64,000 nucleotides of DNA from a bacterium. GTDB taxonomy: Bacteria; Patescibacteriota; Minisyncoccia; Phycocordibacterales; UBA6065. The notes below the pieces were generated by a model that saw nothing but the letters and a program-made list of their open reading frames with translations, ran no database searches and was not told the DNA's origin. The stretch lies in NCBI GenBank assembly GCA_030680695.1, contig JAUXUT010000149.1, positions 536,324-600,323 on the forward strand. Direction: 5' to 3'. Positions 28,295-60,717 of this stretch are shown here, in pieces. How positions within the stretch are numbered: position 1 is the stretch's first letter; every line of letters starts with the position of its first letter. Made by a program: the position numbers and the translations under genes.

Positions 28295-28351
28295 GTCATA
28301 AGTATGTTAATAATATGTGCACAAGCTGTTAATAAGAATTTTCTCTTCGCC

Positions 28352-28489: not shown

Positions 28490-28493
28490 AGCC

Positions 28494-28820
28494 ATGCTAC
28501 GCAAGGCAGATCGCCTCGCGTCTCGCGACATAAATCGCCCATCTCAAGGAAAAAGCGTCTTCGGGACGCTTATTTCTATGCGTTTTTTACCATCCGAGCA
28601 CACCAAAGTTTCCGTGGTTGTGTCTAAAAAGGTCGCGCCGACAGCCGTTGGACGCAACCGGATCCGCCGCAGGGTCTATGCTGCTGTGCGAGAAGTGAGA
28701 AATTCACTCAAAAAACCCGCTTTTATAATGATTATGCCCAAGAAAGAGTGCCTTTCTTGCGATATAAGGTCAATCAATGACGAGCTCAAAACCCTTTTTA
28801 ACAAGGCTGGTCTTTCGTGA
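28494..28820 (+). CDS. rnpA: ribonuclease P protein component
   Basis: 108 aa basic protein directly after rpmH with an RnpA-like pattern (RLxxxxDFxxV..G). Confidence 0.8.
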   Translation: MLRKADRLASRDINRPSQGKSVFGTLISMRFLPSEHTKVSVVVSKKVAPTAVGRNRIRRRVYAAVREVRNSLKKPAFIMIMPKKECLSCDIRSINDELKTLFNKAGLS

Positions 28821-28835
28821 TAGTATTGCCCAATC

Positions 28836-35362: not shown

Positions 35363-35800
35363 CTAAAAGGTTTTCTTGCCTGCCTGGTTTTGGGCCGGAT
35401 TCTGGCTTTGTTTGATGTCGAGTGACCAGGTTAGGTCTTTGAGCTTGCTGTCAGAGAGTTTTGGCACATAGAAATCAGGAGCCACAGTCGGGGCCTCTTC
35501 CCTTGTTTCGATCGGCTTGTTTACCTTCTTCCAAATGTACAATTTGTCTCCAAACGCGTATGTAAATGCAGATTCCACCACATTTATGAACGGTTTGTTG
35601 TTAATCTTGTAAAAAGCCAAAGCCGCAGCGAAAGCCATTATCGGAAGAATGAAAATGACGCTTATGAAAAGGTTGCCGATGAGGGTATATACAACAAAAG
35701 AAAGGCCTGCCCCGCCGACGAGGTATATGAACTGTTTTATCGTGAGGGGGCCAAATATCTTGTCTTCAACCTCTATGAATTGGGGTACCTGGAATCTCAT
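35363..35800 (-). CDS. PrgI/VirB3-like small membrane protein
   Basis: 145 aa; N-terminus MRFQVPQFIEVEDKIFGPLTIKQFIYLVGG followed by two TM helices, matching the PrgI-family signature; immediately upstream of VirB4. Confidence 0.6.
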   Translation of the reverse strand: MRFQVPQFIEVEDKIFGPLTIKQFIYLVGGAGLSFVVYTLIGNLFISVIFILPIMAFAAALAFYKINNKPFINVVESAFTYAFGDKLYIWKKVNKPIETREEAPTVAPDFYVPKLSDSKLKDLTWSLDIKQSQNPAQNQAGKKTF

Positions 35801-35804
35801 GAGT

Positions 35805-36236
35805 TTATTGGATTGGTTCTCGATATGGGTCCACGGTCGTTTTCTTTGTTGGCATGTTTACCGGCTCAGTTAACTTACCTTCGATGAAGTCGTGGGCGAT
35901 GGCATGGTCATCAGCCGGTGGTGTCATCACAGGATGAACAGCCGGCGTCGGATTTTCTATTTCGGCGAGGATGTCTTCTTTAGCCATACTGTTGACTCTT
36001 TGTGAACTTTCAACAACTGATTTTCTAGCCGGAATAAATATTTCAACATTTATATCGGTGGTAAGGTCGATAGCGTCTTCAGCTGATAGGTTAAGATGGT
36101 CCTCGATTATCGAGATGAAGTCATCACTCTGGCTTTGACCAGATATAACTTTATCTACTTCCTCAGCCAGCACGCCGAGTTGATCGATGTGTAGTCCGAA
36201 TTTATCACCAATTTTTTTTAAGGTTGGGTTATCCAT
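35805..36236 (-). CDS. hypothetical acidic protein (T4SS-like operon)
   Basis: 143 aa; no family recognised. Confidence 0.35.
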   Translation of the reverse strand: MDNPTLKKIGDKFGLHIDQLGVLAEEVDKVISGQSQSDDFISIIEDHLNLSAEDAIDLTTDINVEIFIPARKSVVESSQRVNSMAKEDILAEIENPTPAVHPVMTPPADDHAIAHDFIEGKLTEPVNMPTKKTTVDPYREPIQ

Positions 36237-36238
36237 GC

Positions 36239-38605
36239 TTAGGTATATTGCTCATCATCATCTTCTGCGTCTGCATCTGGGCCAGCAGGTGTTGTTGGGG
36301 TAGCTGATTTTGGTTCCCTTCCCCCCCTTTTACCCTTTTTACCCTTTTGTTTGTTGCCTTCGATTGAATCAAATTCATCCTGTTCTTTTTTTAGCTCAGC
36401 TTTCTTTTTTTGAAGTTCAGCTGCAAGACCATCTTTACCGTCTGTTCGAGGCCTAAAACCCTTATCAACGACTTGCTTGCCAGAGGCATCAAGTACAGGT
36501 TTTCCGTTGTCCGTTCTCGGCTTTTCATAGTATTCATGACCGATTCTGTCCTTTCTGATTATATCTCCAATAGAGTCGGTGTCGCCCTTCTCTGATTTTA
36601 ACATCGCTTGTTTTTTGGTCACCACATCAGTCATACCCATAACCCTTCCAATCCTTTCATCTTGGTGTTTTTTGTACTTTGAGTAGCTATTTATTTTCTT
36701 TGCCTCGCTCCTTATTTTATCTTTCTCGGCCTGCGTCATCTTTCCTGTTTCTCTGTCGACTTGTCCCATTAGGGCGGCGGTTTCTTCTGGTGATTCGGCA
36801 GAATTAGCTTTGTGTAGCAATGCGGCTACCTTATTTTTCTTCATCATGCTCTCAAGTTCATTCTGCATACGTATTTTTTCTAGCCTAAGTGCCGCATTCA
36901 TCTTATCCACATCATCTGTCTTGGCGGCATTTTCAAGGTGGGCCATCGCGATTTGCTCGGCAATGATCTGGTTGCTTATACCAGTACTTGCTTTCTTAGC
37001 ATCCTCAACATTAGCCTTTCTGTACGCGGCATGTGCGTTATCAGTTATATCTTCGAAGGCGCTCGAATATCCCTTACCGGCGACGCCGGCGTTCATTGCT
37101 TTGTAAATAGAATCATCCTGGCGCATAGCTGCATAGCGGGCCCTGTTCTCTTCACCAGCCTTTCCTTTACCGAGATTCTTTTCTGCCCACTCCTTCTCTT
37201 TTTCCTTGAAATCTTCGACACCTGATTTAAATCCACCCTCCTCAATTTTACCAACCTTAGTTGCATCAAGTTTCACACCGGCTATATCTAGCTTTCCTCC
37301 GAGGGCACCCATCATGCTGCCGCCCGCTGTTGTTTTGCGTGCGTCAAAACTCGAAGATGCCATTTTGTTGGTCGCAGCAAGCTGCATTCTTCCCGCAAAG
37401 CCCCTCATACCGCCTTCGGCCGCTTTAGCCTGCAGGGCACCCATAGACTCTTTGTCTTGGGTGTAATTGAACGCTCTGCGTCCAATGGTTTGTCTTCCGA
37501 ATGCACCACCAAGACCAGCTATACCTCCGACGGCGATGCCGGTCGCATTCTTTGCTATGTTTGCGATAGAGCTACCGATCTCACCACTATTATCTTTGGC
37601 CACCTGAAGAGCTTTGAGCAGCATCATAATTATGATGATGAATATGACGTAGTTGACCGGTGTGAATTCTGTGCTCGCGGCGTCATTACCGAAGACAAGT
37701 GCGTCGAATCGATCGACCATGAAAAGGGTTATGTATAGGAATAGGAAGAACATTGGCAGCATCATGAGCTGCTTAAGCATCTCGTCCCACCACTTCCCTG
37801 CTTGTTTACTATAATCACCTAATGAGAAGAAAGGTCCAGTGAACCCTATCGGTGCGGTAATGAGGAGTATCATGAACGCTACAATACGGCCGACAATAAG
37901 GAAGACCATATGGAAGAATACATATATCGCAACACAGATTAGAGCAAATAGAAGTACACCTTGGGTGAAGGACTGCAAAGAGAAAGACTTCATGCTAAAG
38001 AAATCACTAAGGCTTGTCCCTGGCCCACCTGAAGTTTGCGTGAGTTTTTCCATCTGGAGTGTTGCACGTACCGACGAGCTCATACTCGATCCATCGCCGA
38101 GATTTTTTATGCCTTGCACGAGCCACGCGGTGACAACGTTGCTTGTGTCGATCATTATTTTCGTAAAGAAAAGGCTGAAGTTGAGGAGCAGTGCTGCCAT
38201 AAGAACACCAGCGATGGTTCTTTTCACCGAAGCGAGGTTTCCGATATTGAGAATAGTTTTTATACCCTCATAGATAAGTATGAAGATAAAGATCATGTTC
38301 GCGAGATCGCGTACAATGCTCCAGGTGATTCCTATGGCTTCTGAATTATAAAAACTCGGGTCGAGTGATAGTGAAACAGCGGTGTCGATAATGAGACCGA
38401 GGAGTTGCAAAATCAAGCCGCCAATTGGTATGAGCACCCACCAGAATATTTTTCCGATAAGTCCATAGAAAATATCAATACCACCAGTTAGGAGGCTCAG
38501 GGCAGCATCGGCAACTTGGGCGTTAGCCTGATGTGGCGCGAAGAAAACACCCGCAGCGACAAGGATGGTCGTTATAAGGAAAAATTGAGAGACGAGCTTT
38601 CTCAT
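36239..38605 (-). CDS. VirB6/TrbL-like polytopic membrane protein with long charged coiled-coil C-terminal domain
   Basis: 788 aa; signal peptide, then at least six hydrophobic helices in the first ~380 aa; C-terminal ~380 aa K/E/A-rich coiled coil. Confidence 0.5.
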   Translation of the reverse strand: MRKLVSQFFLITTILVAAGVFFAPHQANAQVADAALSLLTGGIDIFYGLIGKIFWWVLIPIGGLILQLLGLIIDTAVSLSLDPSFYNSEAIGITWSIVRDLANMIFIFILIYEGIKTILNIGNLASVKRTIAGVLMAALLLNFSLFFTKIMIDTSNVVTAWLVQGIKNLGDGSSMSSSVRATLQMEKLTQTSGGPGTSLSDFFSMKSFSLQSFTQGVLLFALICVAIYVFFHMVFLIVGRIVAFMILLITAPIGFTGPFFSLGDYSKQAGKWWDEMLKQLMMLPMFFLFLYITLFMVDRFDALVFGNDAASTEFTPVNYVIFIIIIMMLLKALQVAKDNSGEIGSSIANIAKNATGIAVGGIAGLGGAFGRQTIGRRAFNYTQDKESMGALQAKAAEGGMRGFAGRMQLAATNKMASSSFDARKTTAGGSMMGALGGKLDIAGVKLDATKVGKIEEGGFKSGVEDFKEKEKEWAEKNLGKGKAGEENRARYAAMRQDDSIYKAMNAGVAGKGYSSAFEDITDNAHAAYRKANVEDAKKASTGISNQIIAEQIAMAHLENAAKTDDVDKMNAALRLEKIRMQNELESMMKKNKVAALLHKANSAESPEETAALMGQVDRETGKMTQAEKDKIRSEAKKINSYSKYKKHQDERIGRVMGMTDVVTKKQAMLKSEKGDTDSIGDIIRKDRIGHEYYEKPRTDNGKPVLDASGKQVVDKGFRPRTDGKDGLAAELQKKKAELKKEQDEFDSIEGNKQKGKKGKRGGREPKSATPTTPAGPDADAEDDDEQYT

Positions 38606-38700
38606 CCCTAATATTGTACTACAAAATTAAAGTCTGGTGTAAGTAGTCTACTTGGCCTGTCTAAAAAACGGTCAATGAGCGTCCCAACCCATATCGATCA

Positions 38701-41220
38701 TTATCGAATTAATACGGGAATTGGTTTAATATTCTGTGAAGAGAAATCAAAAGCGATACCAGATAGACCACCACCACCATAAGAGCTGGTTTGAGCGACT
38801 AAGCCACTGCCCCCAGGTTGAACCTGAACAACAGCCGGCACGGTGAACTTAATCGTTCCCACCGAAAGCACCGCACCATCAGATCCTTTGGCGGTTACAC
38901 GTGTTGTGTACGACGCACCAGGCGGCAGGGTTTTGAGTTGGCCAGTGAGAATGATTCTAGAATCATGGCTTGGCCCAGTCGAGACACCAGTGAAAGTTAT
39001 ACTGCTATTTGATGCTGGTTGGAAATTACGCGTTACACCATTCTGCTTCATGCTGATGGTGATTTGAGAAAATGCATCATCAAATGTTACTGGCTGTCCC
39101 GTTGATGATTCGAATGCGACCTCGAGAGATCCGATACTCCTATCTGCGGGTGAACTCACGCTTATTTCAGCACCGAACACATCACCGGATTTGGCGGTAC
39201 CGGTTTGGCTGGCCACAGTCACTGGGCTATTTGGATCGTTATTGGTCGAAGAAGATTGGCTTGGAGAGTCAGGTTTCTGGTTCGTGGCCGTTCCAGTTGT
39301 TGATGCCGCCCCCATGACTTCTATAACCTCAACCTCTGCGAGTTCGAGTGGTCTGTAACACGAAGCATTTCCACTATAACTTTGGTAATGCTCGTTACAT
39401 GACTTTACCGCAGCGTTTTTTTGTATTCTAATTGCGGATGCATTCTGATTTACTGGAACAACGATTGGGTTATTTGTTTGACCACCGTCAATTACCGAAC
39501 TCAACCAGACTTCCCCAGCAGAAGTCTTGGCCGATATGGTGAACATGCCCAGGCTGTCGGCCCCAGATTTATCTGACACTTTCCAGATTCGAATTTCTTG
39601 TATTTTTCTGGTCTGTCCAAGGTTCACTTCCCACCACGGATTTGCATCGTCCTCGTATGTTGATGATCCTTTCACATACTGATTGGTTTGTGTAATTCCA
39701 TCTACGGCGCCACCAGGATTCGTGCCCGATGATTGGCTTGTTGGTTTAAGTAATGCGGCGTTTGCCGTGGCGTTGCCAGAACTAAACGCGCTTACAAGGG
39801 ACGCCTGTTGTTGGCTTTGTTGGTTGGTACTTGCAGTTATACCCGCATTCGCCGCTTCGTTTATGTTCCGTATGTTCGGATTAGATTCGCTGGTGAAAAG
39901 ACCTTGTGCCTCGCCTATGCTACCGATTCGGTAATCATCGAGCTCTGTGCCAGCACCGATATCAGTAGATGCTGGAAGCGCTGTTCCATAGTATTGGGCG
40001 CGATAACGATCGAGATACGTCGGACCGCTCGTCGAACGTTTTTTAGACAGGCCAAGTAGGCCGCTTGCACCTGAAATGGCTTTCTGCGCAATTTGGTTGA
40101 GGGTTGCGGCGATAACATGGTCTATTTCGGTCGCAACAGCAGACTGAATTTCAGATTGACCAAGCACAGAGCTCAATTTATCAGCAATGATTTTACCAGG
40201 AGTTTTTGTGGTCATCTTACCGGGCTTACATTGAGGCTTGGAGTCAAAATTGCTGGTAAACTCAGATAATGTTGCGGGGCTGGCATTGAAACTAGTTTCA
40301 GACGCAAGATAGTTTGTTAGGTTCTCATCCATAATCTGTTGTGATGTAATTGCAACAGAGAACGGATTGATGGACGCAGTACCTACTGAAGGATTACTGA
40401 TGTTTGCATTTGAAGCCGCAACCGTACGAGCCCGCGCCTCGCCCGCGCTCTCATATTCATCGCATGTGTCGAAGTTCAAAAATCCCGATCCAATTGTGAT
40501 TTTTTTCTCTTGTATATTTTTTGCACGCCCCGCTCTTTGGGCTAGTTCTGATTCCGCGACTAGGTAAGCACCATATACATTGTTTGTTGGCCTGGCGGTC
40601 AGACTTAGCCAATTATCCCAACCGGCACCACCGTTGTTTTGTACAAAGTTTTCGATATTGTCACCGATTTTGCTAAGGGTACAAGTAATTCTATCTTGAA
40701 ACGGGCGGCTGTATTTGAGGGCGAGCTCAAGGCGAATTTTGAAAGAAAAGTCTTTACAAAGGAAGCCGAGCTCCGTTCCTTCGATAAATGTACCCATTAC
40801 CTGGTCAGCAGCATTAAGGAGGGTTCCCTCAAAATCGGTGACAAACAAAGGTTTACCCTCAAAGCCGCTGTTCACCCAGTTCACAACACTTGCACCGATA
40901 TTACGTATAAGCGCAATAACAAGGGCTTGCCCAAGAGGTTTTAATATACACGTAGTAAGCGTATTTGTATTTACACTTCCCCCTGAGAAGATGTCGCCCA
41001 AGAATCGGCCAACGTTGGCAGATGGAACGCCCACAGCTTCTTGGACTGAACCAGGGGCTTGTGTGGCGGCGGATGTGGTAAAGGCCGCGGCGCATGCGGC
41101 AACTGTTCCAGACTGGGCCGATACCTGGCGGGGCTGAGCAAGAAGGCCTGCTGGGACCATCAAAGACGCGATGATTGCGAAACAGATTACGTGCGCTGAT
41201 AGATTTTTCATGAAGCTCAT
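38701..41220 (-). CDS. large secreted protein with F5/8 type C (discoidin) domain
   Basis: 839 aa; signal peptide; discoidin-domain signature ...GAVDGITQTN..SSTYEDDANPWWEVNLGQTRKIQEIRIW...; Ig-like C-terminal region. Confidence 0.55.
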   Translation of the reverse strand: MSFMKNLSAHVICFAIIASLMVPAGLLAQPRQVSAQSGTVAACAAAFTTSAATQAPGSVQEAVGVPSANVGRFLGDIFSGGSVNTNTLTTCILKPLGQALVIALIRNIGASVVNWVNSGFEGKPLFVTDFEGTLLNAADQVMGTFIEGTELGFLCKDFSFKIRLELALKYSRPFQDRITCTLSKIGDNIENFVQNNGGAGWDNWLSLTARPTNNVYGAYLVAESELAQRAGRAKNIQEKKITIGSGFLNFDTCDEYESAGEARARTVAASNANISNPSVGTASINPFSVAITSQQIMDENLTNYLASETSFNASPATLSEFTSNFDSKPQCKPGKMTTKTPGKIIADKLSSVLGQSEIQSAVATEIDHVIAATLNQIAQKAISGASGLLGLSKKRSTSGPTYLDRYRAQYYGTALPASTDIGAGTELDDYRIGSIGEAQGLFTSESNPNIRNINEAANAGITASTNQQSQQQASLVSAFSSGNATANAALLKPTSQSSGTNPGGAVDGITQTNQYVKGSSTYEDDANPWWEVNLGQTRKIQEIRIWKVSDKSGADSLGMFTISAKTSAGEVWLSSVIDGGQTNNPIVVPVNQNASAIRIQKNAAVKSCNEHYQSYSGNASCYRPLELAEVEVIEVMGAASTTGTATNQKPDSPSQSSSTNNDPNSPVTVASQTGTAKSGDVFGAEISVSSPADRSIGSLEVAFESSTGQPVTFDDAFSQITISMKQNGVTRNFQPASNSSITFTGVSTGPSHDSRIILTGQLKTLPPGASYTTRVTAKGSDGAVLSVGTIKFTVPAVVQVQPGGSGLVAQTSSYGGGGLSGIAFDFSSQNIKPIPVLIR

Positions 41221-51101: not shown

Positions 51102-51815
51102 TTAGCGGATCTTGCGAATGACTTTGGTCATACGGCCTGGGCGTGATGGTGGTTGCTGGCGAGGTCCTGGTGCCTTTTGGGCCGGTTCCTCTTGTATATC
51201 ATCGCCTTTATCAATGCCGTGATCGTCTTGGGGTCCGCGATTATTTCTGTCGCCGCGATTTCCACGGGTTCCTGCTCCCCCACTGTTTCCACCGCGTCGT
51301 TCGTTGAATCGGCCGCCAATTACATATCGGCTTGGATCTGAATCGAGATCAATGAAATCATCAGTCGCTTCTTTTAATTTGCCCGATGCTGACTTGCCGA
51401 AGGTTATAACCTCGACCTGACAACCCTGCATTTTAAGGTATTCAACAAGCGGTACGAAGTCGCCGTCGCCTGATGCGAGCACAACAACGTCGAGTTTAGC
51501 CGCGAGTTTCACGGCGTCGATGGCGAGACCAACGTCCCAGTCCGCCTTTTTTGAGCCAGATGAAAATATCTGTAGGTCCTTGGTTTTAGTTTCGATGCCC
51601 ATTTTATTGAGCGCGTCGAAAAAGTTGCTTTCCTCGCCTGATTCCGTCGTAATGACGTATGCGATTGCACGCACAAGTTGGCGTTCTGCAAGGGCGGTTT
51701 CGAGCACTTCACCGAAGTTTACGCGGCCATGATGAAGGTTCTTGGCGCTGTGATATAGGTTTTGCGCATCAATGAATATACCAACGCGCTGATCCTTATG
51801 TTTAATTACTGACAT
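51102..51815 (-). CDS. NYN-domain (LabA-like/PIN-like) protein
   Basis: 237 aa; GIFIDAQNLYHS...DVVVLASGDGDFVPLV NYN signature; Gly/Arg-rich C-terminal tail. Confidence 0.75.
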   Translation of the reverse strand: MSVIKHKDQRVGIFIDAQNLYHSAKNLHHGRVNFGEVLETALAERQLVRAIAYVITTESGEESNFFDALNKMGIETKTKDLQIFSSGSKKADWDVGLAIDAVKLAAKLDVVVLASGDGDFVPLVEYLKMQGCQVEVITFGKSASGKLKEATDDFIDLDSDPSRYVIGGRFNERRGGNSGGAGTRGNRGDRNNRGPQDDHGIDKGDDIQEEPAQKAPGPRQQPPSRPGRMTKVIRKIR

Positions 51816-51936
51816 TTGTTTAAAAAATTAAAGATATCGGAAAAAGTCCGATGTTATTAAAAATGCACCATGCTGACGCGAATTGAATCGCAACCCGGAA
51901 CGAAGACTCCGCCGAGAGGCGGAGCGAGTTCGGTTG

Positions 51937-52206
51937 TTATTTTACCTTGAGCTCGAGCTTCTTGGCGAGCGCGAGATAGCGCTTCGGGTGCTTGGTCTGA
52001 AGGTATTTGATGTGGTTCTGCCTGTCTGCGACCATGGCGAGGAGGCCTCGGCGTGAGTGCTTGTCCTTGTCGTGCTTCTTGAGGTGTCGAGCGAGCTCCT
52101 CGATTTTTGATGTGAGGAGAGCGACCTGAACCTCAGGCGAGCCCGTGTCTTTGTCGTGAACGGCAGAAACCTTGATTACCTTTGACTTCTTTATCGTTGA
52201 AAGCAT
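51937..52206 (-). CDS. rpsO: 30S ribosomal protein S15
   Basis: Start at MLSTIKK; DTGSPEVQVALLTSKIEELARHLKKHDKDKHSRRGLLAMV matches S15. Confidence 0.85.
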   Translation of the reverse strand: MLSTIKKSKVIKVSAVHDKDTGSPEVQVALLTSKIEELARHLKKHDKDKHSRRGLLAMVADRQNHIKYLQTKHPKRYLALAKKLELKVK

Positions 52207-52299
52207 GGTACCCCCTATCTTAGCATATATGGAGCTAAATTGCAAGCCCCGCGCTTACTACAGCCCTGTGTCGCCTTTTTTGCTATAATATTGTGCGAC

Positions 52300-53238
52300 A
52301 TGGCATCACTACGCGAACTAAAGACGCAATTCCTCGAATATATCGAAATCGAGAAGGGTCGGAGTATAAAGACCGTCCAAAATTATGATCATTATCTGAC
52401 GCGTTTTCTCGCCTTTATCAAGAAAGACGACGCAAAGTCGATTACAGATACGTCGGTGAGAGAGTTTCGCCTGTGGCTTAATCGCCAACCGGCTGGTAAT
52501 GCGCGCACCGGTCCCAATCGTGGTAGCGCGGGAACTCTCAAGAAAAAGACGCAGAATTATTATCTCATCGCTTTACGCGCTTTTCTTAAATATTTGGCTC
52601 GCCAAGGAGTTTCTTCCCTTTCACCAGAACGTATCGAGCTCGCCAAGGTCGGCGACCGGCACATCGAGTTTATGAATGACGAAGAATTGCATCGCTTACT
52701 TGAAGCGCCTGACGGCTCAGATCTCAAATCACTGCGAGACAGAGCCATATTATGGGCGCTTTTCTCTACAGGCTTGCGTGTGTCAGAGCTCTGTTCCCTT
52801 CCGCGCGATATCGACCTTTCGGCCGAAGGCATACCGGTGCGCGGCAAGGGCGACAAAGTGCGCGTCGTATTTTTTTCTGATGCGGCCAAGGCGGCCATCA
52901 AGGCATATCTCAACAAGCGTGACGATATGGACGATTCTCTGTTCGTAAAAGTTGGAGTTGAAAAACGAAGCGGCGGCGAATCACTTCCCCTCACCACACG
53001 ATCGATTGAAAGGATTGTGAAGTTGTACGCGACAAAGGCTGGCATTATGACCAAACGAGTGACACCCCACGTTTTGCGCCATTCGTTCGCTACTGATTTG
53101 TTGAGCAATGGGGCCGATTTACGTGCCGTGCAGGATCTTCTTGGTCACGCCAACATCAGCACCACACAGATATACACTCACGTCACCGACGCGCATTTGC
53201 GGAACGTCCACAAACAGTTTCACAACAAGAAGAAGTAG
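52300..53238 (+). CDS. xerC: tyrosine site-specific recombinase XerC/XerD-like
   Basis: C-terminal catalytic motifs ...HVLRHSFATDLLSNGADLRAVQDLLGHANISTTQIYTHV (R..H..R..Y); N-terminal SAM-like domain. Start chosen at MASLRE. Confidence 0.8.
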   Translation: MASLRELKTQFLEYIEIEKGRSIKTVQNYDHYLTRFLAFIKKDDAKSITDTSVREFRLWLNRQPAGNARTGPNRGSAGTLKKKTQNYYLIALRAFLKYLARQGVSSLSPERIELAKVGDRHIEFMNDEELHRLLEAPDGSDLKSLRDRAILWALFSTGLRVSELCSLPRDIDLSAEGIPVRGKGDKVRVVFFSDAAKAAIKAYLNKRDDMDDSLFVKVGVEKRSGGESLPLTTRSIERIVKLYATKAGIMTKRVTPHVLRHSFATDLLSNGADLRAVQDLLGHANISTTQIYTHVTDAHLRNVHKQFHNKKK

Positions 53239-53285
53239 AAGAAAAATAGCCTGTCGAACACCAGTCTTTCTGGTATTATTGCGGC

Positions 53286-54083
53286 ATGAAGATCGTATCT
53301 TGGAATGTGAACGGCATCCGCGCGGTGCACAAGAAAGGCCTTTTTCTTCCTTTCATCGACCAGTACCAGCCGGATATTCTGTGTCTTCAAGAAACTAAGG
53401 CCGAGCAAGGCCAGGTCGAAATAGACCTGTCTGGATACGAAGAATATTGGAATTCAGCCCAAAAGAAGGGCTATTCTGGTACGGCCATATTCACGAAAGT
53501 GAAGCCCGTCGCGATAATTAACGGCATTCCAGACCATATATGCGAGAAGTACGGCCTCATTGCTGATGAATACGGTGATCCACGCACCGAAGGCCGCGTT
53601 ATAGCCGCAGAATTCAAGGATTTTTTCCTTGTGACGGTATACACACCTAACGCCAAGGAGGATTTAAGCCGCATTCCATTGCGACATCGACAGTGGGATC
53701 CCGCGTTTCTCGCCTATTGCAAGGAACTCGAGAAAAAGAAGCCAGTCGTATTTTGTGGCGATCTCAATGTGGCCCATACTCCAGACGACCTCGCCCGACC
53801 AAAAGAAAATGTTGGACTCAAAGGTTTCACTGATGAAGAGCGAGAAGGATTTCAGAATTTTATCGACGCTGGTTTCATCGATACCTTCAGAATTTTTCAT
53901 AAAGGTAACGGCTTCTATACATGGTGGTCGCACTTTGCGAATGCCCGCGCACGCAACGTCGGATGGCGTATCGATTATGTACTTGTATCCGCATCATTTT
54001 CAGAAAAAGTGAAGTCTGCCGGAATCCTTCCTGAGGTTCTTGGATCAGATCACTGCCCCGTATTCGTGAATATGGCTTTGTAA
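53286..54083 (+). CDS. xth: exodeoxyribonuclease III (AP endonuclease)
   Basis: 265 aa; MKIVSWNVNGIRA start, ExoIII/EEP motifs, C-terminal SDHCPV. Confidence 0.9.
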   Translation: MKIVSWNVNGIRAVHKKGLFLPFIDQYQPDILCLQETKAEQGQVEIDLSGYEEYWNSAQKKGYSGTAIFTKVKPVAIINGIPDHICEKYGLIADEYGDPRTEGRVIAAEFKDFFLVTVYTPNAKEDLSRIPLRHRQWDPAFLAYCKELEKKKPVVFCGDLNVAHTPDDLARPKENVGLKGFTDEEREGFQNFIDAGFIDTFRIFHKGNGFYTWWSHFANARARNVGWRIDYVLVSASFSEKVKSAGILPEVLGSDHCPVFVNMAL

Positions 54084-54167
54084 GGCCTCTTTTACAGATG
54101 TCCTTTATTTAAAGTTATCCCCACATCATGTCCTTTACATGTCTTTTACGACTGCTACAATATATCC

Positions 54168-54470
54168 AGGCCAGTACGGAGAACTTCTTGCCGACCCCGG
54201 CGTAGAGGATCTCCCTGAAAAAGAGTTCTTTCTACATAGTCGGTAATCGTTTAAGGTTTGGTCTTGGGCAAGCGCTACGCGCGGCCCACTCGAGTCGAGA
54301 GACTCAAAAAAGGAAATAACCTCGAAAGCGAGTACACGTCGACGGCCCTGCCGCTGCAGGCATGAATTAAATTATTTTTCGGCCATCACGGGTAGGATCA
54401 CCTCCCCATGTACTCACTCTAGCGGTTATTTCGAAGCCGCTGGCAACTCATCAAGCCGGCGGTTTTTTGT
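54168..54470 (+). ncRNA. candidate ~300-nt RNA (unclassified) with its own promoter and terminator
   Basis: Sigma70-like promoter TTTACA-16nt-TACAAT at about 54132-54160; strong intrinsic terminator CCGCTGGC-loop-GCCGGCGG + TTTTTTGTTTG at 54437-54470; GC-rich structured interior; only tiny ORFs (longest ~35 aa). Confidence 0.3.
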
Positions 54471-54506
54471 TTGTAAAATACGACAGGATTGAATACAATT
54501 AAATAC

Positions 54507-54537
54507 GTAAAACGGCTCGGTTGAGCCGTTTTTGTCT
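54507..54537. terminator. bidirectional intrinsic terminator (AAAACGGCTC-GGTT-GAGCCGTTTT) after cca
   Basis: Perfect 10-bp palindromic stem flanked by A-tract and T-tract; immediately downstream of the cca stop on the minus strand. Confidence 0.65.
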
Positions 54538-56035
54538 ATTCAACGCCGTGTTTGCCACGTATTTTGGCCAACTCTTCTTCTTCGGCTTTTTGTTTTTTAT
54601 CCTTCCCTATCGCGGCAAGTTTTTTCAGAGCCATGTCGTCTAGTTTTACCAGTTCCTGTGCACGAGTCTCCATGTAATCGGTTGTATTTTTAGTCGGATC
54701 CTCCAATGCTTCTTCGAGCAACGCGTGCAGGATAAAACCAATCTTTGCATTAGGTGCCATCCCGGTGAGTTCCATAATTCTGTTACCGTCAATCTTGAGC
54801 ATCCCGACGGACACTGGATCTCGCAAAGCCTCTTCAATCATCGAGCGGTATTTACGCAGTCGATACGGATTCTCCTTTGGCCGTCCAGTTCCAATGCGAT
54901 CACAGACACGAATATTCATAAGGTCCCAGATATTGTCGTCACCGACATTTGCGACCATTCGGCGTACGGCCGATAGAGTTATGGTCTCGGTATCCGAGAA
55001 AAACATGTGCCAACGGACCAGTTTCACGACTTTTTCGACGATTTTCGTCGAAAAAGCTAGGTTTTTAAGGATTTTTTCAGTCATTCTTGCCCCAACCACT
55101 TCATGGCCGTAAAACGTGTATTGATTTGTTTCACGTGAAAACCTGCGGGTGGCTGGTTTGCCAATGTCGTGAAACAGAGCAGCAAGGCGGATTTCAAGGT
55201 CATATTCCTTATCTGCGGCATGTTGCACGGTGCGCAGAAGGTGTTCCCAAACATCATATGCGTGGGCCTGGGTTTGTTTCACACCGACTCCCTCTTCTAG
55301 TTCTGGGGCTATAAATGGCAGTATCCCGAGCTCATGACACAAAATAAGCGCATTCATCGGCACTGGCGACATGATTATGCGGCAGAACTCATCACGAATA
55401 CGCTCTTTTGCAATATGAGAAAGAAGGCCAGAATGAGTCTTTAGAGCCTCCAAAGTCCCCTTTTCTATTGAAAAATCGAGCTCTGAGGCCAATCTAACCG
55501 CCCTCATGATACGTAACGCGTCCTCGGAAAATCGTTCATGGGCGTCACCAACGGTCCTGATTAAGCCATCTTTAAGGTCTTTAAGGCCTTCAAATCCATC
55601 AATAATGTTTCCCGTGAAACCATCCCTCCCCTCTTCGATGTCTAGAGCGAGCGCATTGATAGTAAAATCACGACGCTTGAGATCATCCTCGATATTCGTG
55701 CTAAAGGACACGGCGTCCGGGCGGCGCTTGTCGCTATATGCTGATTCAAGTCGGAATGGCGTAACCTCGATTACTTTGAGTCGCTCGTCTTCCGTTTCAT
55801 CATTCACCACTCCGACCGTGCCGTATTTGTTCTCGTAAAAAGTGTGCGTGAATACCTTTTGTATTTCTTCAGGTGTGGCGTCAGTGGTCACATCCCAGTC
55901 TTTTGGGACCTTGCCGAGCAACAGATCACGAACACACCCTCCTACCAGACAAGCCTTATAATTAGCCGTTTTTAGGCCTTCTGTCACACGTGAAACCTCA
56001 CGTGGGATTTGGAGCGAGAGGATTTTCGTTTCCAT
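54536..56035 (-). CDS. cca: CCA-adding tRNA nucleotidyltransferase with HD domain
   Basis: 499 aa; Pol-beta-like NTase motif GGCVRDLLLGKVPKDWDVTT, C-terminal HD domain (HDIGK). Confidence 0.85.
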   Translation of the reverse strand: METKILSLQIPREVSRVTEGLKTANYKACLVGGCVRDLLLGKVPKDWDVTTDATPEEIQKVFTHTFYENKYGTVGVVNDETEDERLKVIEVTPFRLESAYSDKRRPDAVSFSTNIEDDLKRRDFTINALALDIEEGRDGFTGNIIDGFEGLKDLKDGLIRTVGDAHERFSEDALRIMRAVRLASELDFSIEKGTLEALKTHSGLLSHIAKERIRDEFCRIIMSPVPMNALILCHELGILPFIAPELEEGVGVKQTQAHAYDVWEHLLRTVQHAADKEYDLEIRLAALFHDIGKPATRRFSRETNQYTFYGHEVVGARMTEKILKNLAFSTKIVEKVVKLVRWHMFFSDTETITLSAVRRMVANVGDDNIWDLMNIRVCDRIGTGRPKENPYRLRKYRSMIEEALRDPVSVGMLKIDGNRIMELTGMAPNAKIGFILHALLEEALEDPTKNTTDYMETRAQELVKLDDMALKKLAAIGKDKKQKAEEEELAKIRGKHGVE

Positions 56036-56101
56036 GATTATGCGCCTATATTACTATAGTTTTTTGATTTTTGTCCGCTTTGAACGTATGATGTGACAAT
56101 C

Positions 56102-56173
56102 GCTCCCGTGGTGAAATGGATATCACAACGGTCTTCGGAACCGTCGTTGGGGGTTCGAATCCCTCCGGGAGCA
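56102..56173 (+). tRNA. tRNA-Arg (anticodon TCG), no encoded CCA
   Basis: Cloverleaf: acceptor GCTCCCG/CGGGAGC, anticodon stem-loop ACGGT-CTTCGGA-ACCGT, T-arm GGGGG-TTCGAAT-CCCTC. Confidence 0.8.
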
Positions 56174-56218
56174 CAAATAGATAGTTGGGTTTTGTTTTTT
56201 CTTCGCGTTCGTGTAATA

Positions 56219-56289
56219 TTGTCCCTATGCGGGTATCGTTTAGTGGTAGGACACGTCCTTGCCAAGGATGAGGTGAGAGTTCGATTCTC
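56219..56289 (+). tRNA. tRNA-Gly (anticodon GCC), no encoded CCA
   Basis: Acceptor GCGGGTA/TACCCGC, anticodon stem-loop CGTCC-TTGCCAA-GGATG, T-arm GAGAG-TTCGATT-CTCTC. Confidence 0.85.
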
Positions 56290-56682
56290 TCTACCCGCAC
56301 AAGATCGCGATAGTTGTAATAAAGTTGTAATAAAAATGTGTAAAGGTCGTCTTCGGGCGACCTTTATGCTTATACGGCGTTTTATTAAGCTTGGTCAAAC
56401 ATCAAAATCAAGAAACTAAGATAATATAAAGCGATTTTGGATAACTGGGGATAACTCTGGGGATAGTGTTTAAAAGACAATACCCCGAATTGGCATGAAA
56501 AACACACTTTTGTCCTTAAAAGGCCTAAGTAGAGCCGTAGTTTAGGAATTTGAATTTCTCATGAATTTAACATAATGTTTCATATGAAACGTGGATAAGC
56601 CCGTTTCACGTGAAAACAGCCTTTATGCGGATTTTATTCTTTATTTAGGCTCTGTTGAGCCCTCATTTGTCATAATGGACCC

Positions 56683-57084
56683 ATGAAAACATTCACATCC
56701 AAGAGTCAGAAGTTGGGGTTGTTGGGCGAGGATATAGTCTGTAAATACCTACGGGATAGGGGATTTACTATCATAGAACGAAATTATACAAAGAAGTGGG
56801 GCGAGATCGATATCATCGTGGCAAAGGAAGGGATGATCCGTTTTATCGAGGTTAAGTCCGCGACAAGAGATCTTGGTCCAAACAATCATGTCCTTGATGC
56901 GGCAGACCTGCACAGACCAGAAGATGGGATGCATGCGGCAAAGCGTCGCAGACTATCGAGAACAATACAGACCTATATGGCTTCAATGGGGGATATTGAA
57001 TGGCATTTCGACGTCGCCTGCATACTAATAGACCCAGAACGAAGGCGAGCGAGGATAAAAATAATGGACGATATTGTGCTTTAA
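56683..57084 (+). CDS. yraN: YraN family (UPF0102) endonuclease
   Basis: 133 aa; GEDIVCKYLRDRGFTIIERNY..GEIDIIV...IRFIEVK pattern of YraN. Confidence 0.75.
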   Translation: MKTFTSKSQKLGLLGEDIVCKYLRDRGFTIIERNYTKKWGEIDIIVAKEGMIRFIEVKSATRDLGPNNHVLDAADLHRPEDGMHAAKRRRLSRTIQTYMASMGDIEWHFDVACILIDPERRRARIKIMDDIVL

Positions 57085-57143
57085 GGTGCGCGCCGATTAG
57101 ATTTTCTGGGCCCTATCTGCTAGTATGTGGGAACTGAAAAGTA

Positions 57144-57219
57144 CGGGGCGTGGTGTAACGGCTAACATGCTTGACTTGGGATCAAGTGACTCCGGGTTCG
57201 AATCCCGGCGCCCCGACCA
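57144..57219 (+). tRNA. tRNA-Pro (anticodon TGG) with genomically encoded CCA
   Basis: Acceptor CGGGGCG/CGCCCCG, anticodon stem-loop CTTGA-CTTGGGA-TCAAG, T-arm CCGGG-TTCGAAT-CCCGG, then ACCA. Confidence 0.85.
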
Positions 57220-57221
57220 TA

Positions 57222-57527
57222 ATGGAATCTGCGAAATTTACGCGGACAATAGAGGACTTCACGTGCGAGCACTGCGGCAGGGAGGTTAAAGGAAACGGCT
57301 ATACGAATCATTGCCCGGCTTGTCTTTGGTCTAAACACGTCGATATCAACCCTGGTGACAGGGCGGCGTCCTGTGGAGGCATGATGGAGCCCGTATGGGC
57401 TGGCAAGGACGGCGTTAAGAACATGATTCTGCATCGATGTGCGCTTTGCGGATACGAGCGGCGCAAGGAACTCGTCCCAGATGATGATTTTGATGTGTTT
57501 GTGCGTATATCGGCATTGGTGCGATAG
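57222..57527 (+). CDS. RNHCP domain protein
   Basis: Start at MESAKF right after tRNA-Pro; contains CEHCGREVKGNGYTNHCPACLWSKH and a second CxxC (HRCALCGYER), the RNHCP-domain signature. Confidence 0.6.
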   Translation: MESAKFTRTIEDFTCEHCGREVKGNGYTNHCPACLWSKHVDINPGDRAASCGGMMEPVWAGKDGVKNMILHRCALCGYERRKELVPDDDFDVFVRISALVR

Positions 57528-57836
57528 GGAATAGTTAGTCAAGACATGATGACGAACGAGGCATCAACGGCCCTTTGACAGTCTTTTTATGTGTTTCCTA
57601 ATGAAATTGTGACTGAAAGAAAAAACAAATAGAAGGCGAATAGAAAACGCCAAACACGACATCCTAGATATTTAGTAACCAGACACGGAATATGTCAAAC
57701 CCAAAAGCTGATTTTGACAGATCAGGCTCGTCGTTTCTCTTTTTAACTGGTGCTTACAACCGGGTGTATGCTTTCGATACGGTAGGTTGTGCGAAAGCAA
57801 CACCTGCCGCAGGCCTTATCAATTGATAACATCACT

Positions 57837-57926
57837 ATGAACAACAATCCAAATCAACCAAATCAGCCTAATAATCCGAACCAACCAAAGAAGCCAGGCC
57901 AGCAGGATGTGCCACCACAGAATTAA
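57837..57926 (+). CDS. possible 29-aa Asn/Pro/Gln-rich small peptide
   Basis: ATG...TAA ORF MNNNPNQPNQPNNPNQPKKPGQQDVPPQN followed immediately by a strong terminator; no obvious SD; coding status uncertain. Confidence 0.2.
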   Translation: MNNNPNQPNQPNNPNQPKKPGQQDVPPQN

Positions 57927-57931
57927 AACAA

Positions 57932-57968
57932 AAAGCCCTCGGCATATGCCGAGGGCTTTTGCTTTGGA
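57932..57968 (+). terminator. intrinsic terminator (AGCCCTCGGC-ATAT-GCCGAGGGCT + TTTTGCTTTGG)
   Basis: Perfect 10-bp inverted repeat followed by a T-rich tract on the plus strand. Confidence 0.7.
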
Positions 57969-58001
57969 AATGACGTGTGTTTGTGCTAGATTAGAGCAAC
58001 T

Positions 58002-58072
58002 GCGGGCGTAATTTAGTGGTAGAATGACTGCCTTCCAAGCAGTAAGTCCGGGTTCGATTCCCGGCGCCCGCA
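58002..58072 (+). tRNA. tRNA-Gly (anticodon TCC), no encoded CCA
   Basis: Acceptor GCGGGCG/CGCCCGC, anticodon stem-loop ACTGC-CTTCCAA-GCAGT, T-arm CCGGG-TTCGATT-CCCGG. Confidence 0.85.
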
Positions 58073-58100
58073 CACTTACTCAGATAATCGATCATTCCAA

Positions 58101-58676
58101 ATGCAACTCATGTTCCTCAAGAAAACCTCATCACTATTCCTTTCGACAGCTCTTGCCCTCGGCTTTCTTTCTGTTGGAATCCCTTCTGCCCATGCCTGCT
58201 CGTGCATGATGCCTGTTCTGCCACAGGACGCCCTTGTTCAAACAGATGCAGTGTTTGTCGGTACGGTTACCATGGTTGTGCCAAAAGATGATGACATGAA
58301 CCGCGTTGTTTCGTTCGATGTGGATCGTTCATGGAAAGGCGTTACCACAAAATCTGTATCCATAGGGACCGCTCGCGATTCCGCGGCTTGCGGCATTGAT
58401 TTTGAGGCGGGGAAGACCTATGTGGTCTACGCCTATGAAAGTGATGAAGGCGGCTTGTGGGCGGGTCTTTGCTCCAGGACGCATGAAGTCGTTGTCGAAG
58501 GCATTGAGGCAGATGAAGATGTCATGGCTCTTGGCACCACAACCATCACAATCGCTGACCCTGAGCCGCACCAGTCAGCAATGGCAAGTGGGGCAGTTAC
58601 TTTGGTAATAGGCCTGGTGGCCGTGGTGGCCGGTATCGGAGCCTTCAGACTATTTGGGACTAAAAAAGCGGAGTAG
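58101..58676 (+). CDS. TIMP/NTR-like domain protein with signal peptide and C-terminal TM anchor
   Basis: Signal peptide ends ..PSAHA/CSC; mature N-terminus CSCMMPVLPQDALVQTDAVFVGTV resembles the TIMP N-terminus (CSCxPxHPQxAFCxxDxVIRAK); C-terminal TM (AVTLVIGLVAVVAGIGAF). Confidence 0.4.
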   Translation: MQLMFLKKTSSLFLSTALALGFLSVGIPSAHACSCMMPVLPQDALVQTDAVFVGTVTMVVPKDDDMNRVVSFDVDRSWKGVTTKSVSIGTARDSAACGIDFEAGKTYVVYAYESDEGGLWAGLCSRTHEVVVEGIEADEDVMALGTTTITIADPEPHQSAMASGAVTLVIGLVAVVAGIGAFRLFGTKKAE

Positions 58677-58687
58677 ACGAACGGCAA

Positions 58688-58722
58688 ACAAAAATCCCGC
58701 CATATGGCGGGATTTTTGTTTT
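58688..58722. terminator. bidirectional intrinsic terminator (AAAAATCCCGCC-ATAT-GGCGGGATTTTT)
   Basis: Perfect palindrome between the convergent TIMP-like gene (+) and hup (-). Confidence 0.7.
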
Positions 58723-58736
58723 CGAAAGAATGAGTC

Positions 58737-59009
58737 TTACTTAACTGCGTCTTTGAGAGCCTTTGCTGCGCGGAACTTAGGAACCTTCATTGCTGGGACC
58801 GAGATGGATTCACCGGTTCGAGGATTTCGAGCCTGGCGAGCCTTTCGGGTCTTTACCGAGAAGATGCCGAGACCTGCGATCGATACTTCGTCGCCCTTCT
58901 TGAGGCCGCCGACGATAGAATCGAAGACGGTGTCTACGACCTGCTCTGCCTGGACCTTGGTGGTGTTAAGAACGCCGTGTACTACTTCTACGATTGCTGC
59001 TTTGTTCAT
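58737..59009 (-). CDS. hup: HU family DNA-binding protein
   Basis: Start at MNKAAIVE; GLGIFSVKTRKARQARNPRTGESISVPAMKVPKFRAAKALKDAV matches the HU beta-arm. Confidence 0.8.
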   Translation of the reverse strand: MNKAAIVEVVHGVLNTTKVQAEQVVDTVFDSIVGGLKKGDEVSIAGLGIFSVKTRKARQARNPRTGESISVPAMKVPKFRAAKALKDAVK

Positions 59010-59190
59010 TCGTTTATGAGAGCTAACTGATAATCGACTAACATCTCGGGTCTCGAGAGGTTGTGGTCTGCAAATAAGTATATAAGAGGCCGTATTTTGC
59101 GCAAATGCTAAAAAATGGCTCTGTTGACAACTTTTACTGTAAAACAAAAATATGGCCCTGTTGAGCCGTATTTATGCCGTCGGTTTTCAA

Positions 59191-60717
59191 CTATCTGGCG
59201 AATTCTACGACGCGTGATTCTCTGATGACAGTTACCTTTATCTCTCCTGGGTACTTTAGGTCTTTCTCGATTTTTTCTGCGATCGATCGACCCATGCTCC
59301 TTGCTTCGAGGTCGTTCACTTCTTCTGGCTTCACGAAAATACGTATTTCTCGACCTGCTTGGAGTGCATATGACTTCTCTACACCCTTGAATCCTGACGC
59401 GATTGCTTCCAGTTCTTGCAGTCTCTTGATGTAATTCTCGACTGAGTCACGGCGTGCACCAGGACGAGCACCAGAAATGGCGTCGGCGGTCTGGACGATG
59501 ATTGATTCCACAGTTTCGTATGGATATTCTTCGTGGTGGGCCTGCATGGCTTTGATTATGGCCTCGTCCGTTCCGAATTTTTGCAATATTCTGCGTCCGA
59601 TTTCAACATGAGTACCCTGAACTTCGTGGTCTAGGGCCTTGCCGATGTCGTGAACGAGGGCCCCGGCCTTGGCCACGGCTACGTTAGCGCCCAGTTCCTC
59701 GGCTATCATACCGGCGATATGAGTCATTTCGATTGAGTGTTGGAGCACGTTCTGGCCGTATGAGGTCCTGAAATAGAGGCGCCCAAGGATGGCCACGATA
59801 CGCGGATCGAGATTATGGACACCTGTTTCGAATGTTGCCTGCTCGCCCTTTTCCTTTATGACCTTATTGATATCTTCACGAGCTTTCTCGACGACCTTCT
59901 CGATCTTGGCTGGCTGTATACGCCCATCAACGAGAAGCGCCTCAAGTGCCATACGAGCAATTTGTCGACGAATAGGGTCGAAAGACGAGAGGACGATGGC
60001 GCCCGGTGTGTCATCTACGATTATTTCTACACCAGTAGCGCGTTCAAAGCTCTTGATGTTACGGCCCTCCTTACCGATTATTTTCCCTTTGATTTCATCA
60101 GAAGGGAGGTGGATTGTAGTCGAGAACACATCATTCGTGACCGAATTTGCCAGACGCTGAATGGCTGTCGCAACAATTTCTTTTGCGCGTTCCTCGAGTT
60201 TATCTCCGTTCGTTGTTTCGAGCTTCCTCATACGCACAACAAGATCCTCCTCGTACTTCTTCTCGATTGTCTTTACGAGCTCATCTTTGGCGTCAGCTTC
60301 AGATATATGAGCGGCGCGTTCCAACGCAGATTTACTATCCGAGAGCATTTCGTCTGCGCGTTCCTTTATCTCGCGTATTTCCTGTGCCTTGGCTTTAAGG
60401 CTTTCTACTTCTGAATCGATGTCCGCCTGACGTTTTTCGAGCGAGTCCTCTTTTTTAATGAGGCGTTCTTCCTGGGCTTTGAGTTTATCTTCTTTTTCTT
60501 TCGCTTCCTGACGCAGTTCTTTGAGGGTCTCTGCGGCGCTTTCTTCTGCTTCAAGAAGGACTTTTTTCGCGGCCTCTTGGGCCTTGAGTTCCATCTCCTT
60601 TATCTCTATTTCGAGCGAGTTGCGTTTACGGCTCGCCACCAACACTCGTAGGTAATATCCGATACCCATTCCGCCGAGACAGGCGAGTATGAGCAGAGCG
60701 ATCACTTTCAACGACAT
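59191..60717 (-). CDS. rny: ribonuclease Y
   Basis: 508 aa; N-terminal TM, coiled coil, KH domain (IIGKEGRNIKSFERATGVEIIVDD), HD domain (HSIEMTHIAGMIAEELG...LVHDIGK). Confidence 0.9.
   Translation of the reverse strand: MSLKVIALLILACLGGMGIGYYLRVLVASRKRNSLEIEIKEMELKAQEAAKKVLLEAEESAAETLKELRQEAKEKEDKLKAQEERLIKKEDSLEKRQADIDSEVESLKAKAQEIREIKERADEMLSDSKSALERAAHISEADAKDELVKTIEKKYEEDLVVRMRKLETTNGDKLEERAKEIVATAIQRLANSVTNDVFSTTIHLPSDEIKGKIIGKEGRNIKSFERATGVEIIVDDTPGAIVLSSFDPIRRQIARMALEALLVDGRIQPAKIEKVVEKAREDINKVIKEKGEQATFETGVHNLDPRIVAILGRLYFRTSYGQNVLQHSIEMTHIAGMIAEELGANVAVAKAGALVHDIGKALDHEVQGTHVEIGRRILQKFGTDEAIIKAMQAHHEEYPYETVESIIVQTADAISGARPGARRDSVENYIKRLQELEAIASGFKGVEKSYALQAGREIRIFVKPEEVNDLEARSMGRSIAEKIEKDLKYPGEIKVTVIRESRVVEFAR

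Follow-up and report, generated by a model that had tools for sequence, protein, structure and literature searches.

In ribosomal RNA (rRNA) operons, transcription starts at a strong promoter and proceeds through a non-coding, structured leader that consists of a hairpin, a single-stranded boxA of the GYUCUUUAA type and a G/U-rich block (boxB-boxA-boxC; NusB/NusE/NusA/NusG/SuhB). boxA recruits NusB/S10 to produce a Rho-resistant RNA polymerase, both on rRNA and on clustered regularly interspaced short palindromic repeat (CRISPR) arrays, and in the latter case the leader boxA shields a long untranslated transcript from premature termination (PMC7665894). The gamma-proteobacterial consensus for this element is GYTCTTTAANA (PMC5725501), while the functional boxA of a Legionella CRISPR leader is GTTCTTTAAAA (PMC7862264) and that of a Taylorella rRNA spacer, located after a boxB stem-loop, is TGTTCTTTAACA (PMC2666751). 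Here we describe a locus with leader signals of this kind in a 64,000-nucleotide (nt) stretch of contig JAUXUT010000149.1 (positions 536,324 to 600,323, hereafter the window). Between the convergent genes xth and cca, bp 54166-54472 (+ strand) are read as the gene for a stand-alone structured non-coding RNA of approximately 300 nt, representing a family that is absent from Rfam 15 and that occupies the same slot in many Saccharibacteria. We assign a probability of roughly 0.8 to this reading, including the mechanism proposed below.

The unit resembles an rRNA leader in its strong conserved promoter, its boxA-type element and the G/U-rich block, in the hairpin that most members have ahead of boxA and in its predicted non-coding, structured transcript, but no rRNA is found downstream: the whole unit is only 230-550 nt in length in the family, ends at its own terminator and in some members has a second boxA-like copy near the 3' end. 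It resembles the CRISPR leaders in that a boxA with an identical core word is found outside of rRNA; in contrast to these, it has no repeats, spacers or cas genes, and its product would be a folded RNA rather than an array. Like the genes of 6S RNA and Ms1-type abundant stable RNAs, the unit stands alone between a promoter and a terminator of its own, and its pairing is conserved and its sequence only weakly so. 6S RNA, however, is a rod with a central bubble while the structures predicted here are multi-branched and, to our knowledge, neither a boxA leader nor a DnaA-box promoter is among the features of the 6S RNA family. The OLE, ROOL, GOLLD and raiA RNAs are also lineage-restricted, syntenic, backed by covariation and of unknown function, but each of these has a core found across all members. 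Here, only the leader signals are family-wide, and no Rfam family was matched.

Conservation of the xth/cca unit

The gap between xth (53286-54083, + strand; Exo_endo_phos domain) and cca (54536-56035, - strand; PolyA_pol, RNA-binding and HD domains), both identified in the window using Pfam, is 452 bp in length. An xth-based search with one genome per GTDB species recovered 80 Saccharibacteria/Patescibacteria metagenome-assembled genomes, 36 of which (counting the window) keep a gap of 290-1100 nt that is poor in open reading frames (ORFs) before a convergent cca. In approximately 10 genomes, the promoter module described below is found at the cca end and faces xth (i.e. the gene is inverted in the same slot). 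Following a search of metagenome contigs with the exact 23-bp pattern TTATCCACA-N5-GTCCTTTAC, at least 120 contigs were identified, and nearly all of the matches with enough flanking sequence lie beside xth and/or cca in either orientation. This linkage holds even where Xth is only approximately 40% identical to the window protein. Within the units, the 3' end is found 230-550 nt downstream (median approximately 290) in a hairpin followed by a U-run. In the window, transcription is predicted to start at approximately 54168 in a conserved CAG context and to end in a T-run at 54472. The only elements common to the whole family are the promoter, the start region, boxA and the terminator; signals outside of these are not considered family-wide because a clade core model and BLAST clusters (both described below) remain clade-specific.

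A previous sequence-only reading of this gap had proposed a promoter-to-terminator unit encoding a structured RNA and no protein, and this proposal is supported by conservation of the unit in more than 150 genomes and contigs and by helices with compensatory changes. The promoter it described (TTTACA, 16-nt spacer, TACAAT) was recovered by a promoter scan, although at 54134-54161 rather than at 54132-54160, a difference of 1-2 nt. Its strong intrinsic terminator with an 8-bp stem and its second, bidirectional terminator for the convergent cca were also both recovered. Describing the interior as GC-rich was an overstatement, as the G+C content within the unit (0.48) is only slightly above that of the flanks (0.44). 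The DnaA box and repeated promoter boxes, the boxA element and the clade-specific nature of the RNA body were overlooked.

Promoter module

The sigma-70-type promoter at 54134-54161 (+ strand) matches 10 of 12 consensus positions, with a TG just ahead of its -10, and ranks first among the promoter-like sites of the interval 53000-56500. Throughout the family, both hexamers and the distance between them are conserved. Upstream of these is a DnaA-box-like sequence, TTATCCCCA (54115-54123, + strand), with one mismatch to the canonical box. Most relatives have the perfect DnaA box TTATCCACA and the other variants observed (TTATGCACA, TTTTCCACA and ATATCCACA) are all close to TTWTNCACA. This box is located 5 bp upstream of GTCCTTTAC in 34 of the 36 syntenic loci, as well as in the metagenome contigs identified above. 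A TTWTNCACA box at a fixed position beside a promoter is the arrangement that would be predicted for DnaA-regulated transcription. The DnaA protein of this organism presumably recognizes the canonical sequence, as canonical boxes cluster in the dnaA-dnaN spacer of the window.

Two direct repeats, TGTCCTTTA(C) and TGTCTTTTA(C), 11 bp apart, overlap the -35 (54129-54148, + strand) and look like an operator. A further exact TGTCCTTTA box is found upstream (54099-54107, + strand). In relatives, this box is half of an 18-bp palindrome, TGTCCTTTATAAAGGACA, which occurs at the same position in related loci L002, L011 and L029; the L003 copy differs at one position. The second box copy of other clades is inverted (TAAAGGACA) and lies immediately upstream of the -10. 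The module of the family can be written as (A)GTTATCCACA, 4-5 nt, TGTCCTTTACA (the TTTACA of which is the -35), a second TGTCYTTTA or the inverted TAAAGGACA, TAnAAT (the -10) and the CAG start region, with one copy in each of the 36 loci. The GTCCTTTAC boxes may form 11-bp direct repeats or separated inverted repeats, and just upstream they may form a perfect palindrome of 18 bp; this pattern points to a dimeric factor that would bind them. It is probable that the promoter is controlled both by DnaA and by such a repeat-binding factor. A Pho-box-like response-regulator site was also considered for the direct repeats, as a lead only. Further tandem TGTCCTTTA / TGTCTTTTA boxes are found 3-4 kb from the RNA locus in L020 (8700-8760) and L011 (8130-8170), where a coding region ends and tRNA genes are close by. 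The box-binding factor may control a small set of genes.

A boxA-like element in the leader

GUUCUUU is the sole word common to the transcripts family-wide. In the window, the core GTTCTTT (54225-54231, 7/7 match) begins a boxA-like sequence, GTTCTTTCTAC (54225-54235, + strand), with a weaker 3' part. GTTCTTT is found in 92 of 143 family RNAs and its reverse complement in five. When individual occurrences are counted, 115 are sense and five are antisense, at varying distances from the promoter. In the unbiased synteny set, 22 of the 36 loci have the word (1.2 expected), while the window as a whole shows no enrichment (12 found, 12.3 expected). Most copies are located at +5 to +85 from the predicted start, precede an A-rich stretch and are often duplicated 10-11 nt away. 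The resulting family consensus, (U/A)GUUCUUU[ACG]AAAA, agrees with the boxA consensus GYUCUUUAANA, and the position of the element (in the sense orientation in the 5' part of an untranslated transcript) is that of a boxA leader. Because GUUCUUU matches the published boxA, which recruits NusB/S10, we read the first 60-150 nt of the RNA as an rrn-type leader. By analogy, Nus factors would be predicted to bind the GUUCUUU element.

In most members, a hairpin of variable length is found between the start and GUUCUUU; in the window, this hairpin (54178-54214, + strand) is present in both the minimum free energy and centroid structures and occupies the position of boxB, an element with no testable sequence signature. 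In approximately one quarter of the members, boxA is less than 25 nt from the start, which is too close for a hairpin, and approximately one quarter have a second boxA-like copy near the 3' end. Following boxA, a G/U-rich block, AGTCGGTAATCGTTTAAGGTTTGGTC (54238-54263, + strand; alignments A1 and A3), is found at the boxC position. It is identical in the closest relatives, L002 and L003, and altered but recognizable in L018. A tblastn search of the window and the relatives' DNA with E. coli NusB (an approximate query) gave no match, and no rRNA genes were found for boxA comparison in the 1.5 Mb of locus sequence examined.

Clade-specific structure of the RNA body

The 54166-54472 sequence folds at -116 kcal/mol (z = -6.4 relative to dinucleotide shuffles), while the reverse strand has a z-score of -3.2. 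For the window clade (eight sequences, alignment A3), RNAalifold predicts 39 pairs. In these, 89.8% of cells are paired (76.7% for shuffles) and 22 pairs have changed on both sides (11.2 for shuffles); none of 500 shuffles reached these values and slid partners gave 30-46%. Helices 3-5 are 88-94% paired and 10 of their 16 pairs have changed on both sides. The same eight sequences define a 3' domain (54313-54432, + strand), in which an outer helix of GAAATA (54313-54318) with TATTTC (54427-54432) and an inner helix of GCGAGTACA with TGTACTC surround hairpins.

A similar pattern is observed in a second clade (18 sequences, alignment A4), for which 54 pairs were defined. In this clade, 84.8% of cells are paired (71.8% for shuffles), 44 pairs have changed on both sides (25.1 for shuffles), none of 500 shuffles reached these values and slid partners gave 38-45%. 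These pairs belong to a 5' helix and an inner helix, to a long-range helix in which CAUCC-UU-CNGUU-G-CU faces AG-G-AANNG-UYU-GGAUG, and to a hairpin and the terminator. R1, a covariance model of the second-clade core, was used to search approximately 1.36 Mb of sequence (the window and L001-L180) and recovered the second clade at 79-106 bits, plus L106. BLAST clustering similarly placed the RNAs into separate clusters. One candidate for a more widely shared motif, the GGGUAGG(C) sequence that follows boxA in several clades (16 of 77 RNAs) and that resembles L15 of RNase P RNA, was rejected because it is not family-wide: in the window, a copy is present only in the 3' half.

Terminators

The first predicted terminator (54437-54472, + strand) consists of an 8-bp stem with a 10-nt loop and a U-run. 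Specifically, CCGCTGGC (54437-54444) pairs with GCCGGCGG (54455-54462), with one U-G among the eight pairs, and is followed by TTTTTTGTTT up to 54472. It was identified using a dedicated scan, as the standard scan (loops ≤ 8 nt) skips a loop of this size. Comparable ...GCGG(C)TTTT sequences are present in every member with enough sequence. A second terminator, AAAACGGCTCGGTTGAGCCGTTTT (54509-54532, both strands), has 10 pairs between an A-run and a T-run, directly adjoins the stop codon of cca (54536) and is conserved in the clade of the window. It is predicted to serve the convergent cca gene and to back up the terminator of the RNA.

Other pairings are possible in this region. The CCGCU of the hairpin AGCGG...CCGCU (54421-54441) is common to the 5' arm of the terminator stem, and GGTTATTTC (54424-54432) pairs with the upstream GAAATAACC, such that the pairings near the terminator are mutually exclusive. 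Relatives have the same GCGR-N9-11-CCGC layout, in which the loop often includes a degenerate boxA-like word. The alternative pairings at 54420-54462 might form a switch.

Searches for known RNAs and alternative explanations

At the gathering score, Rfam 15 identified only five tRNAs in the whole window and only tRNAs in the 36 related loci. At E ≤ 10, the gap and the distant homologue L013 matched only noise (microRNA and snoRNA models on single hairpins). ARAGORN predicted no tRNA or transfer-messenger RNA (tmRNA) in the 36 family loci and no tmRNA in the window, and Rfam likewise revealed no tmRNA, an RNA defined by a tRNA-like domain and a tag reading frame. Signal recognition particle (SRP) RNA was not matched at the gathering score or at E ≤ 10 (window and L013). 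6S RNA had no Rfam match, and the consensus structures, in which the 5' hairpin closes locally, are not rod-like. These results agree with the sequence-only reading, which could not match the RNA to RNase P, tmRNA or SRP RNA motifs and had proposed the Rfam scan. A comparison of relatives for covariation, which had also been proposed, revealed compensatory changes in both clades. Furthermore, a conserved small protein in relatives, which it had named as a refutation, was not found: following all-frame peptide clustering of the relatives, no conserved reading frame was identified and peptide similarities were found in all frames and on both strands, with none that was frame-specific.

That only tiny ORFs are present had been recognized previously. 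The two longest in the gap are 35 aa each (54139-54246, and 54258-54365 with a TTG start), no ORF of 25 aa or more is found on the minus strand of the gap and the median longest sense ORF among the relatives is also 35 aa. A small protein such as the product of 54139-54246 is the explanation to which we give the least credence. In several relatives, ORFs of 15-77 aa do start at the ATG of the ATGTC(C/T)TTT box, but these frames stop at unrelated positions, have only the promoter-encoded residues MSF in common and lack a conserved Shine-Dalgarno sequence and start codon. As the ATG of the window ORF, inside the promoter, sits upstream of the -10, it would not be transcribed. It is also improbable that the RNA is a diverged housekeeping RNA, of which RNase P RNA would be the most plausible, followed by 6S RNA, SRP RNA or tmRNA. 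The window encodes the RNase P protein (rnpA, 28494-28820) and Rfam detected no RNase P RNA in it, but a window of only 64 kb may simply not include the true rnpB. The RNase P RNAs of the candidate phyla radiation have diverged such that 10 of 35 fall below the Rfam cutoffs (PMC8172020), and the RNA described here is similar to these with respect to phylum, size range, failure at the Rfam cutoff, the presence of rnpA in the genome and a tRNA-maturation neighbourhood (the locus adjoins cca and tRNA genes). In addition, annotation of an oral TM7 genome with PGAP gave only two non-coding RNAs (PMC8830319). However, the RNase P, 6S, SRP and tmRNA models all fail to score on the window RNA and on L013 at a threshold as loose as E ≤ 10. 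RF00010 and RF00011 were unmatched at this threshold in the window region and L013, the 36 loci had no RNase P RNA at the gathering score, and the conserved P4 strands (GGAAAGUCC ... ACAGAA/GGCUUA) were not found in the right order. Some members have AGGAAUAGUCC, which resembles the P4 strand AGGAAAGUCC, but in the second clade the strands are in the wrong order for P4, with AGGAA downstream of the strand it pairs with. A P1 helix pairing the 5' and 3' ends around a common core was not observed, and the 5' strand of the second clade instead pairs locally (helix 1). Core regions of RNase P RNA are universal whereas no core is common to the clades here, and some of the transcripts are only approximately 230 nt including the leader and terminator.

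A different explanation is that the locus acts as DNA, with the DnaA box and GT(C/T)CTTT boxes forming a DnaA-titrating site, a secondary-origin-like element or a heavily operated switch and the RNA being incidental. The promoter module is indeed better conserved than the transcript, and GTTCTTT could be a weaker copy of the promoter box, as GTTCTTTAC is one base from GTCCTTTAC. In addition, tandem DnaA boxes and the same promoter boxes recur 2 kb from here in a second gap (56301-56682) and in the homologues of that gap. A pure DNA site is contradicted by the strict strand specificity of GTTCTTT (115 to 5) at varying promoter distances, by a -10 that is always at the right spacing and a terminator that is always present, and by strand-asymmetric folding and compensatory changes that include G-U pairs. 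The probable origin lies beside dnaA, 26 kb distant. We consider this explanation to have little chance of being correct. SinR of Bacillus binds GTTCTYT, and a SinR-type operator was considered for GTTCTTT as a lead only. It is slightly less probable still that the leader and spacer of a former rRNA or tRNA operon are decaying here, as a promoter, boxB, boxA, spacer and terminator that stayed when the stable RNA gene moved away and that have no function of their own. Although its architecture is exactly that of an rrn leader and its body evolves as fast as rRNA spacers, the promoter and terminator are intact across lineages in which Xth is only approximately 40% identical, and pairing within clades is kept by compensatory change. 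In the candidate phyla radiation, unlinked rRNA genes are common (PMC8172020). A functionless sequence should decay in genomes this small.

Proposed mechanism

Based on these results, we favour a stand-alone structured RNA produced in four steps. Transcription would start at the highly conserved sigma-70-type promoter, where the DnaA box, the 5-bp spacing and the GTCCTTTAC repeats over the -35 are all conserved and where DnaA and a dimeric or tandem repeat-binding factor may exert control. The nascent RNA would fold its 5' hairpin and then expose the single-stranded GUUCUUU(N)AAA that matches boxA. As in rRNA and CRISPR leaders, NusB/S10 would bind this element, and the polymerase would become resistant to Rho and pausing and assist RNA folding, such that a long untranslated RNA could be completed. 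The body would then fold into clade-specific helices that are kept by compensatory substitutions, and transcription would stop at the intrinsic terminator.

Several observations weigh against this model. Both ends of the RNA, as well as its stability, are predictions, and a 9-bp match to a DnaA box says nothing on binding. The window boxA matches the 7-nt core only, with CTAC in its 3' part compared to AANA in the consensus, and a Pfam scan of 29 of the window ORFs identified no Nus factor or Rho. As the structures of both clades were scored on the alignments from which they were derived, the contrast with the controls is inflated. Finally, R1 found nothing in the window clade or in the other clades, indicating that there is no family-wide RNA core. 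RNAs that have a fixed molecular function usually possess one.

With respect to its role, our best guess is that this is a stable regulatory or scaffold RNA, not a catalytic housekeeping RNA, with synthesis tied to replication status and growth. A more specific model, which is possible but which we consider doubtful, is that of a lineage-specific stable RNA made like a miniature rRNA operon from a strong conserved promoter wired to DnaA, with boxB/boxA/boxC-type leader signals and in some cases a second boxA at the 3' end. Such an RNA could act via boxA (by titrating NusB/S10 or reporting Nus availability) or as a subunit of an unknown ribonucleoprotein. Action through boxA itself is conceivable because only the Nus-binding leader is invariant while the body merely has to stay folded.

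Genomic neighbourhood and a second conserved non-coding region

The RNA locus is located among genes of RNA metabolism (51102-60717). These encode an NYN-domain protein (51102-51815), S15, a XerC-like recombinase and Xth upstream of the RNA and the CCA-adding enzyme, four tRNAs, YraN/UPF0102 (56683-57084) and RNase Y (59191-60717) beyond it, followed by ClpP. Elsewhere in the window, Pfam identified dnaN (25540-26640, - strand), dnaA (26873-28294, - strand), rnpA (28494-28820, + strand) and yidC (28836-29579, + strand). DnaA boxes are clustered in the dnaA-dnaN spacer (26696-26712, 26784-26792 and 26869-26877), the region is AT-rich, and 25540-29579 is probably the replication origin. An origin in the xth/cca gap was rejected based on these genes and clustered boxes at 25.5-29.6 kb. 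A PrgI-family protein (35363-35800, - strand) adjoins same-strand ORFs of 143, 788 and 839 aa. In this cluster (35363-41220), Pfam was run on the PrgI-family protein and the 143-aa ORF and matched only the former. The cluster looks like a type IV secretion cluster.

The gap between tRNA-Gly and yraN (56301-56682) is a second conserved non-coding region, with homologues in L029 (7380-7560), L005 (7900-8100) and L033 (8380-8560). In the window, it contains tandem DnaA-box-like repeats (56436-56454 and 56590-56598, - strand), TGTCYTTWA boxes (56471-56479 and 56511-56519), the palindromes GTTTCATATGAAAC (56577-56590) and TTTCACGTGAAA (56604-56615) and hairpins. In relatives, two to three tandem TGTGGATAA boxes are accompanied by TAAAGGACA or by the palindromic TGTCCTTTATAAAGGACA. 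This gap may be a target of the same two factors, and it could serve to titrate DnaA, act as a regulated promoter or encode another RNA.

The hairpin word GGCTC-NNNN-GAGCC (GGCTCGGTTGAGCC, GGCTCTGTTGAGCC) is found in the cca terminator (54513-54526), at 56648-56661 and in relatives, and may be a common terminator or repeat element. Downstream of the RNA terminator, before the stop codon of cca is reached, GTTTCAYRTGAAAC-type palindromes are located in several relatives, namely L005 (5200-5369), L008 (5150-5248), L032 (5100-5157), L034 (5100-5167) and L054 (2040-2100). In the window, none is found at this position; they are instead present at 56.58-56.62 kb.

Significance

A 2022 preprint on the TM7x transcriptome states that no small RNAs had been validated in this strain (bioRxiv 10.1101/2022.03.25.485537), and our literature search turned up no validated small RNA for Saccharibacteria. 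The RNA is very likely important to these organisms, as tiny, densely coded genomes keep a 300-nt non-coding unit in one slot across lineages in which identity between flanking proteins is only 40-80%. Genetic work on Saccharibacteria has recently become possible, and the conserved promoter, with its DnaA box and GTCCTTTAC repeats, could be used for studying transcription control. Similarly, the 23-bp promoter pattern provides a simple metagenome marker for the locus. Under the reading proposed here, a stand-alone structured RNA would join rRNA, CRISPR arrays and a few mRNAs as a target of boxA/Nus antitermination. If the RNA does act through its boxA, it might couple replication status to ribosome synthesis in these reduced-genome epibionts.

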